Source of the DNA: a virus
Reading direction: 5' to 3' (one strand)
IMG/VR virus record: IMGVR_UViG_3300028833_000004
Length of the DNA stretch: 64,000 nucleotides
The notes beneath the pieces were generated by a model that worked only from the letters and a program-made list of their open reading frames with translations, had not been told where the DNA came from and did not search any database. This document shows, piece after piece, positions 22,183 through 30,929 of the stretch. Position numbers and translations under genes: made by a program. Every line of letters begins with the position of its first letter. Positions within the stretch are counted from its first letter, which is position 1.

Positions 22183-22228
22183 AAAAAAAATAATCATCTA
22201 TTGATTATCGGTAAAATGAATCAATAGA
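22183..22228 (-). terminator. rho-independent terminator
   Basis: Inverted repeat CTATTGATT...AATCAATAG at 22198-22227, followed by T8 on the minus strand. Confidence 0.6.
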
Positions 22229-22249
22229 AGATTATTTTATTCTTTAATA

Positions 22250-22540
22250 TTAAACTGGCCATTTATTTAAAACACATCTAGCAGATGGGACTCGACTCTT
22301 TTTCTCCATAAAACAATTACATCCGCATATAAATCCTTTTCCTGGGACCTGGCTGATTTCCTCAGTTTCTGGATTATAACATTTCTTTGCATCACATCGT
22401 TTAGAATTTGGATCATAAAGAACACACTCTTTACAAACCGCCATCCTAAGATCATGAAGTTCTTGTTCACGGCCTAATAAATCATTAGTCCAACCTTTAG
22501 CTATATCACCAACTTGTTTAAATGAGTTTATTCCAAACAT
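22250..22540 (-). CDS. Cys-rich small protein (96 aa)
   Basis: Track ORF 22250..22546 trimmed to the ATG. Multiple CxxC-like pairs. Last gene of the lysis cluster. Confidence 0.6.
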   Translation of the reverse strand: MFGINSFKQVGDIAKGWTNDLLGREQELHDLRMAVCKECVLYDPNSKRCDAKKCYNPETEEISQVPGKGFICGCNCFMEKKSRVPSARCVLNKWPV

Positions 22541-22542
22541 AA

Positions 22543-22944
22543 TCAATCTTCTTTAGATTTTAAATAAGCATATGCGCCACCAAAAAGAATCAAACAAGTT
22601 CCAGCTCCTATAGGTACAGCTTGATATGGAACAGCATCTTTACTATTTGGGCCACCATTAAACCAATCAACTCTATTGTTATACCAACCATCGCTGGGAG
22701 GAATAAATGGAAATATATCTCCCTTATAATGCCATTGATACCAAATCCCATTCTTCTAGTACCACCAAGTCTATGTTTTTTCATTATATCTATATTCAAC
22801 ATTAGGATCATCATTATCTCCTCCCGGAGTTTCTCTAGATTCCCCATATTCATTATATACAGTAATTCTTCTAGGTTCCTAAGTAACTCCTCTGTATACT
22901 GGTGGTTGATATAATAATATAAATAGTATTAGTAATGTTATCAT
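22543..22944 (-). CDS. membrane protein with N- and C-terminal hydrophobic segments (133 aa), TAG-recoded
   Basis: ATG at 22944 overlaps the lysozyme TGA. TGA at 22543. 3 in-frame TAG. Confidence 0.55.
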
Positions 22945-23744
22945 TTATTAAATTTTAATTCTACAATTTGTTCTCTATTACGAGCTAACATTCCACCTCC
23001 CCTAAACTAATAGGGATTTTTATCTCTAACTCTTTTATCCATATCAGACTAAGGCTAATGTAAATGCTAAACATCAACCAAGCGATTATTCCATGTAGAG
23101 CCTTTTGTGAACACACTATCAGAAAAATTCATATAAGGTGATTCATGTGTTGTAGCATAATTAATTGAGTTATTATGATTCCAATTATATAATTCACCAA
23201 TCATCGCCGCAACTCTAGACCGTCTATCGTATAAATTATTTCTATGATTTTCAGAAGGTTTAAATTCCATTTCATTTATAATCTATTGATATTCATCGGT
23301 ATCCATCTACCCATCTTCCATAGCTTTATTTATAGCAGCTGTAAATTTTGGACTTTTCAATTTAAAATTATCTGGCCCACCTCTATAGGCATTATTTAAG
23401 ATAGCATACTTCAATTGTGGATAAAAATTATCCCAATTTGGAAAATAAGATTTAATAGTTTCTTCATGCTAATCCAGATATGCACCAATAGCTTTTTCAG
23501 CATCCTCTTTTGAAATCTTATCCCCCTCTTTGACAGGAGTTCCATCTGCATATACAGTAGTTCCATAACCAATTGTCCATTTCTTACCAACCGAATCCCA
23601 ATATGCCTCTGGCCTGAAGGTTTCGTATCTCTTTAAAAAATCTATAAATCTGCTATCGTATTTTTGTCTTTTAACTTGAAAATTTTCCCAAAATTTCTAG
23701 AAGGGATTCTGAGTTGTGAGTAAATACTATTATATTTCTCCCAT
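22941..23744 (-). CDS. GH24 (T4/P22-type) lysozyme, endolysin; 5' end unresolved
   Basis: Contains FLKRYETFRPEAYWDSVGKKWTIGYGTT (the E..D..T triad), KISKEDAEKAIGAYLD and DRRSRVAAMI. 9 in-frame TAG. The only in-frame ATG (23744) is followed 4 codons later by TAA-TAG. Confidence 0.75.
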
Positions 23745-23747
23745 AAT

Positions 23748-23945
23748 TTAAAAATTCTATTTATTTTGGCTATAATTATAAAATCCATTTATATAAGGGT
23801 GGTCGCCAATCCCATAAACACCAATAGACATATTCTAACTCTATCCCAAGGTATTCTTATTAAGATTAATATCAAAACCCCCAATAGGTTTATGTCTGCG
23901 TAGTTCAATATTTAACCTCGGATTTATATTTATAAATCCATCCAT
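23748..23945 (-). CDS. small hypothetical protein (65 aa), same frame as the lysozyme
   Basis: ATG at 23945, TAA at 23748, 3 in-frame TAG. Confidence 0.35.
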
Positions 23946-24099
23946 TCAACCGAGCTAAGTTTTCAAGGTTTCTTGGTGTTATACCAGAGCTTCCCCAACC
24001 ATAATTGGGTATAGTATCTCCATCGGCCTTATAAATACCATTATTCAGTTCATACACCATTATATGCCTTGTATCTTTGGGGCTTGCATAAAACTCCAC
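23905..24099 (-). CDS. small hypothetical protein (64 aa)
   Basis: Track ORF with GTG start and TGA stop. Confidence 0.4.
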   Translation of the reverse strand: MEFYASPKDTRHIMVYELNNGIYKADGDTIPNYGWGSSGITPRNLENLARLNGWIYKYKSEVKY

Positions 24100-24127
24100 T
24101 CTATTTCCTAAATTTTGTGTTGGTATA

Positions 24128-24667
24128 TTATTTTATATTAATCATTCTTCCAATTCCAACCTAAACACCTACACCAAATTCAGGACCGTATCCAAAAGTT
24201 CCCTATTGAATATTTCCATGTACCCCGAATCCTCCATAAAATCCGAATGAGACAACCATGCCCCATTTCTTAGGCTATTGGATTATTGTTTGTATTTCTT
24301 TATTATATTTATAATTTAATTTAATAGAATCTATATCAGAAGCAAATCCATGATAGTAAACATCTAATTTTGTTTCTGAAGAATCGGACGTTATAGTATC
24401 AGAATATACTTTATAATCTATTGGTAAATCATATAGATATACCGTATCATTATTAGTAACATAAAAAGTATCTGTAGTATTTACATATTGAACTTTTGTA
24501 TGTTCTACTATCCTTTCTTCTACTAATGTTATTGTATCATGTTTCTCTACGTACTCTGTAGTAATCTATGGTTTCTAAGAACAATTACTCATTAAACAGA
24601 TACATAGAATAATATTTATAACTATAGAAGTTATAAGATAAGTGTGTTTTTTTAAAAAATTTATCAT
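24128..24667 (-). CDS. secreted/lipoprotein-like protein (179 aa), TAG-recoded
   Basis: ATG at 24667, TAA at 24128, 5 in-frame TAG. The N-terminus ITSIVINIILCICLMSNCS looks like a signal peptide with a Cys. Confidence 0.55.
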
Positions 24668-24674
24668 AGTAATT

Positions 24675-24710
24675 AAAAAAAACTACTCCGACTTTCCCAA
24701 GCAGGAGTAG
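24675..24710 (-). terminator. rho-independent terminator
   Basis: Stem CTACTCC/GGAGTAG at 24684-24690/24704-24710, followed by T8-9 on the minus strand. Confidence 0.6.
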
Positions 24711-24779
24711 CAAAAATAATTCTACAAAAATAATTCTAAAATTATGAAAACTTTTTCATTGTTATTTCTAAAACCAATG

Positions 24780-24811
24780 CAAAGATAATACTTTTTTCTG
24801 AAACTACCAAA
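24780..24811 (-). promoter_or_regulatory. canonical Bacteroidota sigma-AB-type promoter (TTTG-N20-TAtcTTTG)
   Basis: Reverse complement has TTTG at 24811-24808 and TATCTTTG at 24787-24780, with 20-nt spacing. Confidence 0.5.
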
Positions 24812-24910: not shown

Positions 24911-25651
24911 TTATTTTTCTGGGGTAAGAACCCCAGCTCCCAATGATACCGGAGGGACAGCCATAAAGTACTTCATATACTTCTTTAATGATTCAGGAGT
25001 AAATATTTCCTATAATTGGCGCATATTTAAGTTCCAAAGTTCTGGCGAATTTAAATATTTTTCCATAGGTACTCTCTTCTTTGCTGCATCTATTTCTGCC
25101 GTAAGAGCACGTTGTCTAATCTCCTAATCAGAAGCAACGTTTCTATAATGTTTTTCCGCCTCAACATCATTTAGGATTTCATCCAGAGCGTCTTCTCGTT
25201 CAATTGGGCGAATTTCATGATTATAATCCATGGCCTTTTTAACTTCAGGATTCTCCTTACCAATTTTCAAAAAATAAGTATCATATTCTGGAGAAGCCTC
25301 TCTAAATATTGAACCCTCGGGTTCATAATTCATTGTTCCGGCATGTCCAAACTCATGTACAGCAACCTCGTGTGCAGATTGTTTATTTGTGAAGAATCTT
25401 GGATCAAAAGTCATACGGGTTCCATGTGGAACTAGCTCTCCGTTTCTAAGATAGCCCACGGTAACAGCTACATTATCTCCCTCTAAATTTCCTAACATAA
25501 TCTGGGAGTTCTAGAGGTTTAATAACTATTCATCAGCTAGAGAACGAACCTATGATTCCGGAATGCCATTAGCCAGCTATCTCTTATACCAAACTCCTCC
25601 TGGAGATAGGGCTCGGTGATAGTCCTGGTATCCTGATGCGAGACCCTTCAT
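24911..25651 (-). CDS. HExxH zinc-metallopeptidase-like protein (246 aa), TAG-recoded
   Basis: ATG at 25651, TAA at 24911, 6 in-frame TAG. Contains AVHEFGHAGT. Includes track ORF 25124..25498. Confidence 0.6.
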
Positions 25652-25726
25652 AACATCTTCCTATGAAGCATCACCAGTTAAAACAGATTTTGCTGTGGTA
25701 AAATTATTCGTTGGGGTCGTGCCTTT

Positions 25727-26875
25727 TTACAAACTAAATGTCTTACCACTTTTATCAAATCTAAAGGGTCTCTATCCAAAATATGGGCCCCTTCTATATA
25801 AACTTCCAAAGGGAACTGTTTTTGTTAAGGATTGCCGTTCTAAAAATGGAGACACCTCACTATATAAAGCACCCACATCTATCGGATTTGGGTATAATTT
25901 AGAGGCTATTACATCGGCCCCAAACTCCATACCAGTTCTAGGACTCGTAAAATCAAAACTTCCATATTTATACCCCTAGACTGGGGCACGTCTAATAAAA
26001 TTAGGTCTATTACTGTCCAGAATCCCCTAGGAATCTTCAAACAAATGCCCATATTCATGAGCTGCGTCCCACATCTTAACTGTTGTTCCATTCTTAGAGT
26101 TTCCACCAAGTCCATGTATACTTGGGATAGCTCCCTCACCTCCGAAGTATTCTGGACCACCATTAACTTCTCTATTATAATATCTAACTCTCTTAGCAAA
26201 TGGGGAGAAATTATTTAGCATCACATTAGCCTCTTCAGGACTGTAATTATTTCTTATAGCCCGCTATAAATTTCTATTTATAGTGGCAAACCTCATAGTT
26301 TCTATCGGATGTGCTAATCTATTACCGACGGTCACCCATGAAGTAGTTGGGGCTAAATATTGATAACCACCTAAAGCAGTTAAACCTCCAACGAGTGCCG
26401 TTTTACCATACTCCTTCAAAGCCTAATCAGATCTCCATCCATATTTCTTACCGGTGTCATAGGCATTTTTTGCATTAATACCAGTATAAATAGTACCTTC
26501 CGCCGTAAGTAATGGAAGTGTGATTTCCGGAGCAGCTATAAGTCCTAAAGTGCCAACTCCAAATTTAACTGGAAAACTTACAACTTCCTCAATAGGTTTA
26601 CTTTGTTCTATTAATTTATGTTCATTATATATTTTTACATTTTTATTAGTATCCTATTGTTTCTTTTGCTTCTATTCCGTAGTTAATTTTTCCCCCTAAG
26701 ATATGACTTGCTATGGTGTAGAGTTCTACTCCAACCACAAGAGATAATCCTAATATGTTGGTGTCTTATGAGCATTTTTTGAAGCTTCTAGAAATTCATC
26801 GGGAAATGTAAACTTTATTGGCTGAATAGGTTCTAGAAAAGAAACCATAGTTGCATCGTTTGAAAATGTTGGCAT
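25727..26875 (-). CDS. HExxH zinc-metallopeptidase-like protein (382 aa), TAG-recoded
   Basis: ATG at 26875, TAA at 25727, 11 in-frame TAG. Contains AAHEYGHLF. Includes track ORF 26027..26224. Confidence 0.6.
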
Positions 26876-30165: not shown

Positions 30166-30929
30166 TATACTTTATTACGACGATGCACGTGGAAGTGCGG
30201 ACCAGTAGTAATTCCAGGAATGGGATTATCTTTCTCATTTTTAATATAAATGCCCTTATCTCTCATATATTGTTGTATCTCTGGATCATTATCAATAATC
30301 TATTGAGCGAGTTCATAATCATTATCGATAGGGGTAAAATCAACGGCATTACCTTGATAGTGTGTTGAATTTTTTACATGCCCAGACTAAGCAAATCCCT
30401 CAGTAACTCTAACTCCAATCCCCTTACTAGTTAATAACTTTAAGAAATCGATAACATCATTGTGTACATTATCTAATGTTATTCCTTTTTTAAATATTAA
30501 CTCCCCTGGTTCTATATCCCTGGATTTAATATTTGTAGTCCTAATATAATCTCTTAATTTTAAATCAGGATTAAATTTAGACTTATTATCAAGATTTTTA
30601 TCAAGATTGGCTGAAATCTCTTTATATCTTTCAAAAGCTTGAAATCTCTAATTGAACCGATCTGGAAAGAGATCAGAGTAATCCTTGTATTCTGGCTGAG
30701 ATGTATTTGGCAAATATGTAGAGTTATAAAACTCTAAACCTTCTGCTCCTTTTTTAACCCATTTACGTGCGTTCTAAGCAAATGTAGCCTTCTTTCTTAT
30801 AGAGGCTAGTGGAGAATTTTTTCCCTTTCTAATACATTCTTCTGTAACTTTCCCACCACAGTAATCTGTGAAGGAACCTCGTTTTGAGGGTTTTATATGA
30901 ATCCCACCTTGTTTAAATATATTGATCAT
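30165..30929 (-). CDS. LAS-family zinc peptidase (peptidase M15-like cell-wall hydrolase), TAG-recoded
   Basis: ATG at 30929, TAA at 30165, 4 in-frame TAG. Contains STHYQGNAVDF (H-x6-D) and PHFHV (HxH). Confidence 0.65.

Follow-up and report, generated by a model that had tools for sequence, protein, structure and literature searches.

Where does translation of the endolysin begin in a phage whose only lysozyme start codon is followed almost at once by a stop? The question is raised by the lysis gene cluster of the IMG/VR virus record IMGVR_UViG_3300028833_000004, of which a stretch of 64,000 nucleotides (nt) was analysed (hereafter the window; all positions follow its numbering, and the lysis genes lie on the minus strand). 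On that strand the lysozyme frame opens with ATG (23744-23742), GGA, GAA and ATA, is interrupted at codon 5 by TAA (23732-23730), which TAG (23729-23727) directly follows, and then stays open for 261 more codons up to TGA (22943-22941). This ATG is the sole ATG, GTG or TTG in codons 1 to 60 of the lysozyme, and the only near-cognate codons upstream of the catalytic Glu are ATA (23645-23643), located 7 codons before it, and AAG (23633-23631). A first-pass annotation, made from the sequence alone, had read this series as ATG-GGA-GAA-ATA-TAA-TAG, which is exact to the base. It had reported that no ATG, GTG or TTG lies between the TAA and the catalytic Glu, as our codon scan also finds, and had counted nine in-frame TAG in the lysozyme body downstream of the TAA, a number with which our recount agrees. 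It had also rightly placed an upstream open reading frame (ORF) of 65 amino acids (aa), here ORF65, in the lysozyme frame and ending at TAA (23750-23748). Its conclusion that the lysozyme has no usable start holds only in part: canonical translation is indeed blocked in the window strain, but the ATG at 23744 is the normal start in eight relatives.

We consider, with a probability of about 0.85, that the ATG at 23744 is the normal start of the lysozyme and that the TAA of codon 5 is a strain-specific nonsense mutation derived from the serine codon TCA. Public runs holding the stretch were compared with the window as assembled contigs, and related strains were detected in eight further runs, obtained from gut samples of cattle, goats and other sources. 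A comparison with related phages had been recommended by the first-pass annotation; all eight strains display a normal ATG at the same place. Position 23731 of the plus strand is G in seven of these eight runs (X4, X5, X7, X13, X14, X15 and X17), giving a coding TCA (Ser). The eighth and more divergent strain, X12 (goat gut), reads ...TTT TAA AT ATG GGA GAA AGA TCA TAT TTA..., which is one codon shorter (a 3-nt difference) and keeps the lysozyme frame. As the relatives start at the same ATG with TCA in place of TAA, the ATG at 23744 appears to be the normal start and the TAA to be derived, and the TCA found in the more divergent X12 likewise indicates a derived TAA. An intact, translatable lysozyme ORF is therefore present in the eight related strains and is lacking in the window strain, owing to the TAA at codon 5. 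In X12, X14 and X17, which are devoid of an insert described below, the end of the preceding 179-aa gene (...GRMIEF or ...MIKF) abuts the lysozyme ATG, which is found 8 nt past GAA or AAA, the last shared codon of this gene. The other strain differences in the vicinity are limited to 23625 (TAC>TAT, synonymous), 23665 (CAA>CCA), 23668 (AGA>AAA) and 23696 (AAA>GAA). Among the samples examined, the TAA allele is restricted to those from sheep. According to this scheme, the lysozyme would normally begin at the ATG at 23744, a few bases past the stop of the preceding gene, to give an enzyme of 267 residues (MGEISQYLL...), and a single C>A change in the window strain would have converted codon 5 from TCA (Ser) into TAA, an early ochre stop.

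The TAA allele is genuine in DNA and recurs in contigs assembled from RNA. A contig of 7,940 nt in the DNA runs X1 and X2 (sheep gut) corresponds to the window sequence with zero differences. In the metatranscriptome run X3, which comes from another sample and another study, three contigs cover positions 23341-24662 exactly, and the one of 558 nt (23341-23898), which spans the codon-5 TAA, is identical to the window. No joint skipping any part of the region was found in the contigs of X1, X2 and X3, the RNA contigs being colinear with the DNA. Such an exact match in three assemblies, RNA included and without joints, excludes error and splicing as sources of the TAA. Two other observations were made on the contigs of the various runs. 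In the body of the lysozyme, the window and X4 show about 20 differences concentrated in 58 nt (23454-23511), with nearly identical flanks, which suggests a recombination patch. Moreover, the 33 nt at 23661-23693 match, with 3 differences, deeper contigs in X1, X2, X3, X5, X6, X11 and X13 that run into unrelated sequence.

The interrupted gene encodes a lysozyme of the GH24 family. A Pfam profile search recovered PF00959 with 43.9 bits (cut-off 22.3, E 3.5e-11), and the endolysin profile phrog_7 matched with an E-value of 4.4e-16. The alignment A1 predicts a catalytic triad at T4-like spacing, composed of E41 (23624-23622), D50 and T57; E41 and T57 are invariant in this alignment, whereas D50 is not. 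A word-based protein search yielded two true homologues, both on Logan contigs that translate only with TAG read as Gln and both representing the closest relatives of the lysozyme: P0001 (319 aa, 49% identity) and P0002 (446 aa, 44% identity). Each has a plain ATG start 15 codons upstream of the catalytic Glu (MEDYSKDFIDYIKRFE and MEDFEQEFIDMLLKQEKFE). The counterpart of this region in the window is RQKYDSRFIDFLKRYE, without a start codon, and the start in the window lineage must consequently be further upstream. The three proteins have in common the motif Y-D/S-x-x-F-I-D; the window lysozyme differs from P0001 and P0002 by an N-terminal extension of 25 residues and by the lack of about 75 residues of the C-terminal domain. 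It resembles the GH24 lysozymes of T4 and lambda type in its above-cut-off PF00959 match and in its Glu-Asp-Thr spacing, and departs from them in a C-terminal region of about 130 residues without family match. A short F-(K/R)-x-G-G motif near the end of the lysozyme (22941-23100, minus strand) is kept in alignment A1 despite the C-terminal loss. The search of the DNA of positions 22200-24800 against GenBank phages gave no match, neither the lysozyme nor the Cpn60 gene had a close relative in exact-peptide scans of IMG/VR, and exact-pattern scans of IMG/VR and of JGI metagenomes for the ATG..TNA..TAG stretch recovered nothing. A profile-based scan of IMG/VR detected distant GH24 genes only, with matches beginning mostly at query residues 30-36 and never before residue 6, and is thus uninformative on the lysozyme start. 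No second GH24 copy was detected in the window by tblastn with P0001 and P0002.

The locus is, in our view, an ordinary nonsense allele and not a novel mode of translation start, but several ways in which the enzyme could still be made have to be weighed. Rescue of the ochre allele by unprogrammed or weakly programmed non-canonical translation is unlikely, and two routes can be envisaged. Ribosomes would initiate or re-initiate at the ATA at 23645 or at the AAG at 23633, the ATA product beginning 7 residues before the catalytic Glu; short GH24 enzymes naturally begin at a comparable position, and the catalytic Glu of T4 lysozyme is residue 11. Alternatively, a tRNA-Phe would slip by -1 within the T6 run that adjoins the stop of a putative 51-codon ORF in another frame (frame A; ATT TTT TAA, 23641-23633), and decoding would then continue in the lysozyme frame, 4 codons upstream of the Glu. 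The ATG start of this overlapping ORF at 23788 and the T run joined to the stop at its end are compatible with the second route, as are, with both, a lysozyme body intact over 262 codons besides the TAA and the persistence of the TAA allele in DNA and RNA samples. However, the window strain differs from its relatives by the TAA alone, with neither a new start codon nor a new slippery site, and since the T6 feature is common to the relatives it is not an adaptation to the TAA. Both routes would also lose or replace the conserved Y-D/S-x-x-F-I-D motif, and an ATA codon generally supports initiation about 100 to 1000 times less efficiently than ATG. The local RNA structure is ordinary as well, no unusual fold being detected in the 141 nt around the site, which fold no better than shuffled sequence (z = -0.02). 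The stronger proposal that the ochre endolysin allele is maintained for a low and possibly advantageous level of enzyme, supplied through the ATA at 23645 or the -1 slip on T6, appears somewhat more doubtful still.

A deliberate decoding or skipping of the TAA, by an ochre-suppressor tRNA encoded elsewhere, by programmed read-through or by a gene-60-like bypass from the ATA at 23735 to the ATA at 23645, is highly improbable. The recoded TAG directly after the stop, the matching ATA codons flanking a stretch of 87 nt and the upstream ORF65, in the same frame and also terminated by TAA, could be taken as signs of it; nevertheless, the relatives have a sense codon and translate straight through, and ORF65 forms in them the end of a longer, separate gene. 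TAA is, besides, the main terminator of this phage genome, as it ends two thirds of the long ORFs of the window (38/57, with 19/27 in the late and 19/30 in the early region). None of the five tRNAs of the window carries the anticodon UUA or can read TAA, the suppressor tRNA having C34 and reading TAG only. The predominance of TAA as terminator and the lack of a UUA anticodon in the window both speak against reassignment or ochre suppression of TAA, and a scan of the window for gene pairs split by a single TAA revealed nothing beyond chance. Concerning bypassing of the T4 gene 60 type, the succession ATA...TAA...ATA is present but the fold test showed no stable hairpin where ribosomes would take off, and ATA codons are frequent in a genome as AT-rich as this one. 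Nor is the gap conserved as a non-coding element, for in the relatives a sense codon replaces the stop and the 3-nt indel leaves the frame intact. Read-through of TAA, initiation at ATA and bypassing, all put forward in the first-pass annotation, are thus needed in no relative and have no supporting signal in the window. Its fourth option, a sequencing or assembly error, is contradicted by three independent assemblies, one of them from RNA, that are identical to the window; such an error, or a self-splicing intron removing the stop, has a probability that we regard as almost negligible. An intron could be favoured by the putative homing-endonuclease remnant just upstream of the lysozyme and by the reported richness of Zeta-type crAss-like phages in introns and homing endonucleases (PMC12386605), but no joint crosses the site, the Rfam models of group I and group II introns gave no match, whether at gathering score or with E-values up to 10, and the relatives need no splicing. 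Two specific candidates were rejected in addition. An in-frame intron delimited by the 8-nt repeat GATTTATA at 23942 and 23650 matches no Rfam intron model, the RNA contigs are unspliced and the relatives are without need of it. An assembly error that dropped one A from the A5 run (23665-23661), whose correction would join the ORF starting at ATG 23788 to the lysozyme, is not compatible with three agreeing assemblies, nor with relatives that differ there by substitutions only, without indel.

If codon 5 is an ochre mutation, the production of full-length lysozyme is most probably abolished or strongly reduced in the window strain. As the other 262 codons are undamaged, the mutation may be recent, or the gene may still be partly useful through low-level leakiness. 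The persistence of the strain could then be explained in three ways: lysis may not strictly depend on the enzyme, trace amounts of enzyme may be enough, or co-infecting wild-type genomes may complement the defect. Some points weigh against a simple nonsense mutation. A strain with a stop at codon 5 of its sole recognisable endolysin dominates two samples and had its RNA sequenced; this dominance is unexpected for a lethal defect and may leave room for some rescue. The alleles were read from contigs only, where a co-existing TCA allele would not show, and the searches for a second lysin and for an ochre-suppressor tRNA cover the 64-kb window only. Finally, the changes in the N-terminal extension are mostly non-synonymous (23665, 23668 and 23696), so that its coding status is supported by the conserved frame and the placement of the ATG rather than by purifying selection.

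Table 1. Features of the lysis region and associated loci in the window.
Feature	Position	Strand	Basis or remark
Suppressor tRNA, anticodon CUA, reads TAG not TAA	9116..9189	-	tRNA scan and Rfam
Cys-rich 98-aa protein, no TAG	22250..22546	-	phrog_13558, E 1.7e-7; homology by eye to the L001 96-aa protein
133-aa protein, hydrophobic N- and C-terminal segments, 3 TAG	22543..22944	-	143-aa protein at same position in L001
GH24 lysozyme gene, 267 codons + TGA, codon 5 = TAA, 9 TAG read as Gln	22941..23744	-	Pfam/PHROG match, alignment A1
Catalytic Glu codon GAA of the GH24 fold (predicted)	23622..23624	-	alignment A1; Pfam match begins 3 residues earlier
51-codon ORF in frame A (putative), overlaps lysozyme 5' end, ends ATT TTT TAA on T6 run	23633..23788	-	ATG 23788, TAA 23635-23633
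ATA, near-cognate start candidate, 7 codons before Glu	23643..23645	-	codon scan; no sign of use
Codon-5 TAA, probable derived ochre mutation (TCA>TAA)	23730..23732	-	plus strand 23731: T in window, G in relatives
ATG, probable normal lysozyme start codon	23742..23744	-	frame open from here in eight related strains
ORF65, 65 codons, lysozyme frame, TAA 23750-23748	23748-23945	-	in decayed cassette
Decayed inserted cassette (putative) between 179-aa gene and lysozyme, ORF64 + ORF65	23753..24127	-	strain comparison
ORF64	23905-24099	-	in decayed cassette
Lipoprotein-like 179-aa gene, N-terminal hydrophobic segment + Cys, Gly-rich hydrophobic C-terminus, 5 TAG	24128..24667	-	44% identity to L001 179-aa protein, E 4e-52
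254-aa protein ORF	30168-30929	-	first 60 residues match crAss001 cargo protein gp45 (PDB 7qog), E 3.6e-16

The phage of the window is a crAss-like rumen phage in which TAG is recoded to Gln. The window is composed of a late arm (minus strand, 1-32 kb) and an early arm (plus strand), and 195 in-frame TAG are found in the 27 long late ORFs versus 6 in the 30 long early ORFs. The only suppressor tRNA of the window has a CUA anticodon, and this tRNA together with the TAG of the late genes corresponds to genetic code 15 (TAG = Gln). In the lysozyme and in the spanin-like 179-aa gene, TAG is used for Gln at least as often as CAA and CAG. The crAss-like identity follows from the gp45 match of the ORF 30168-30929. 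The C-terminal part of this protein contains Hedgehog/LAS zinc-peptidase motifs (H..D and HxH), so that it looks like an ejected cell-wall peptidase; given the cargo-type N-terminus attached to it, this other peptidoglycan hydrolase of the window is more likely used at entry. The first-pass annotation had described the lysis cassette as TAG-gated, and the cassette is indeed loaded with TAG (9 in the lysozyme, 5 in the lipoprotein-like gene and 3 in the membrane protein) in a genome encoding the CUA suppressor tRNA. The description is correct here but had been published previously, since a preference for TAG in lysozyme and spanin genes has been reported for crAss-like phages, together with the proposal that it times lysis (Borges et al., bioRxiv 10.1101/2021.08.26.457843). 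The window shares with these recoded cassettes of genetic code 15 a TAG-rich late arm and a CUA suppressor tRNA and shows no difference in kind, although the phage itself is without a DNA match among GenBank phages.

The order of the genes first annotated in the cluster was recovered: the 179-aa lipoprotein-like gene, two small ORFs, the lysozyme, the 133-aa membrane protein and the 98-aa Cys-rich protein. The same order is observed in the related contig L001, with a 179-aa lipoprotein-like protein, the lysozyme, a 143-aa membrane protein, a 96-aa Cys-rich protein and Cpn60. The lysozyme ATG of L002 comes directly after the stop of the preceding gene, which encodes a different 179-aa protein. 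From its features (Table 1), the 179-aa gene of the window would be a candidate spanin-type lysis protein. The 133-aa protein is a candidate holin or membrane protein and has no family match in the Pfam and PHROG profile searches. Further upstream (24911-26875, minus strand), two ORFs of 382 and 246 aa share a frame, with one TAA and 25 open codons between them, and neither has a family match; this single-TAA split is probably a coincidence.

The two small ORFs belong to a variable insert between the 179-aa gene and the lysozyme. This insert comprises 375 nt in the window, is absent in X12, X14 and X17, and is much larger in X4, X5 and X7, by at least 2 kb compared to the window. The contigs of the latter three strains leave the window at 23943 and 23938, and about 850 further bases are found at 24109/24118. 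The ORF65 frame runs on upstream in these strains (...GADAQYGFYKDGFININ...), which makes ORF65 the tail of a longer gene. In the window, ORF64 and ORF65 meet in an overlap of 6 nt, GGATGG (23938-23943), such as a deletion would be expected to leave. L001 contains at the same site, between the 179-aa gene and the lysozyme, an intact gene for a GIY-YIG/NUMOD homing endonuclease of 275 aa, and for this reason the 375 nt of the window are read as a decayed cassette of homing-endonuclease type. ORF64 has no significant family match, and its comparison by BLASTP with the L001 endonuclease (E 1.4) aligned only GWIYKY with GYIWKY. The position of the small ORFs and a weak GIY...YGWG...R motif recognised by eye suggest that they are leftovers of such a mobile cassette. 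Closely related Zeta crAss-like genomes are reported to differ mainly by such inserted homing endonuclease genes (PMC12386605). The junction is reminiscent of the free-standing homing endonuclease genes of the T4 seg/mob type, being empty, decayed or larger depending on the strain, with an intact GIY-YIG/NUMOD gene in L001; unlike these genes, the remnant of the window is without a significant match to an endonuclease family. The 179-aa gene of X14 and X17 lacks a stop ahead of the lysozyme ATG (GAA TTT AAA TTA TGG...) and would extend for about 45 codons in frame A, overlapping the 5' end of the lysozyme, whereas that of X12 terminates at TAA.

Amber and ochre mutants of phage lysozyme genes, such as e of T4 and R of lambda, are known from laboratory genetics. 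The window allele resembles them as a single-base early stop in an endolysin gene whose remainder is intact, and differs from them in that it is natural, dominates wild rumen samples and occurs in a phage that already possesses a TAG suppressor. For the recoded phages of metagenomes, this case calls for caution, since a gene that seems startless or oddly gated may be a plain strain-specific nonsense allele, and the comparison of public runs settles such apparent cases quickly. The locus also provides a clean example of a site between two lysis genes at which a cassette of homing-endonuclease type is missing, decayed or more complete depending on the strain. A strain with a stop at codon 5 of its lysozyme is abundant enough to be assembled from sheep gut DNA and RNA, which raises the question of how strictly the enzyme is needed for phage release. 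If a low-level rescue were true, it would represent a second translational throttle on lysis, added to TAG gating.

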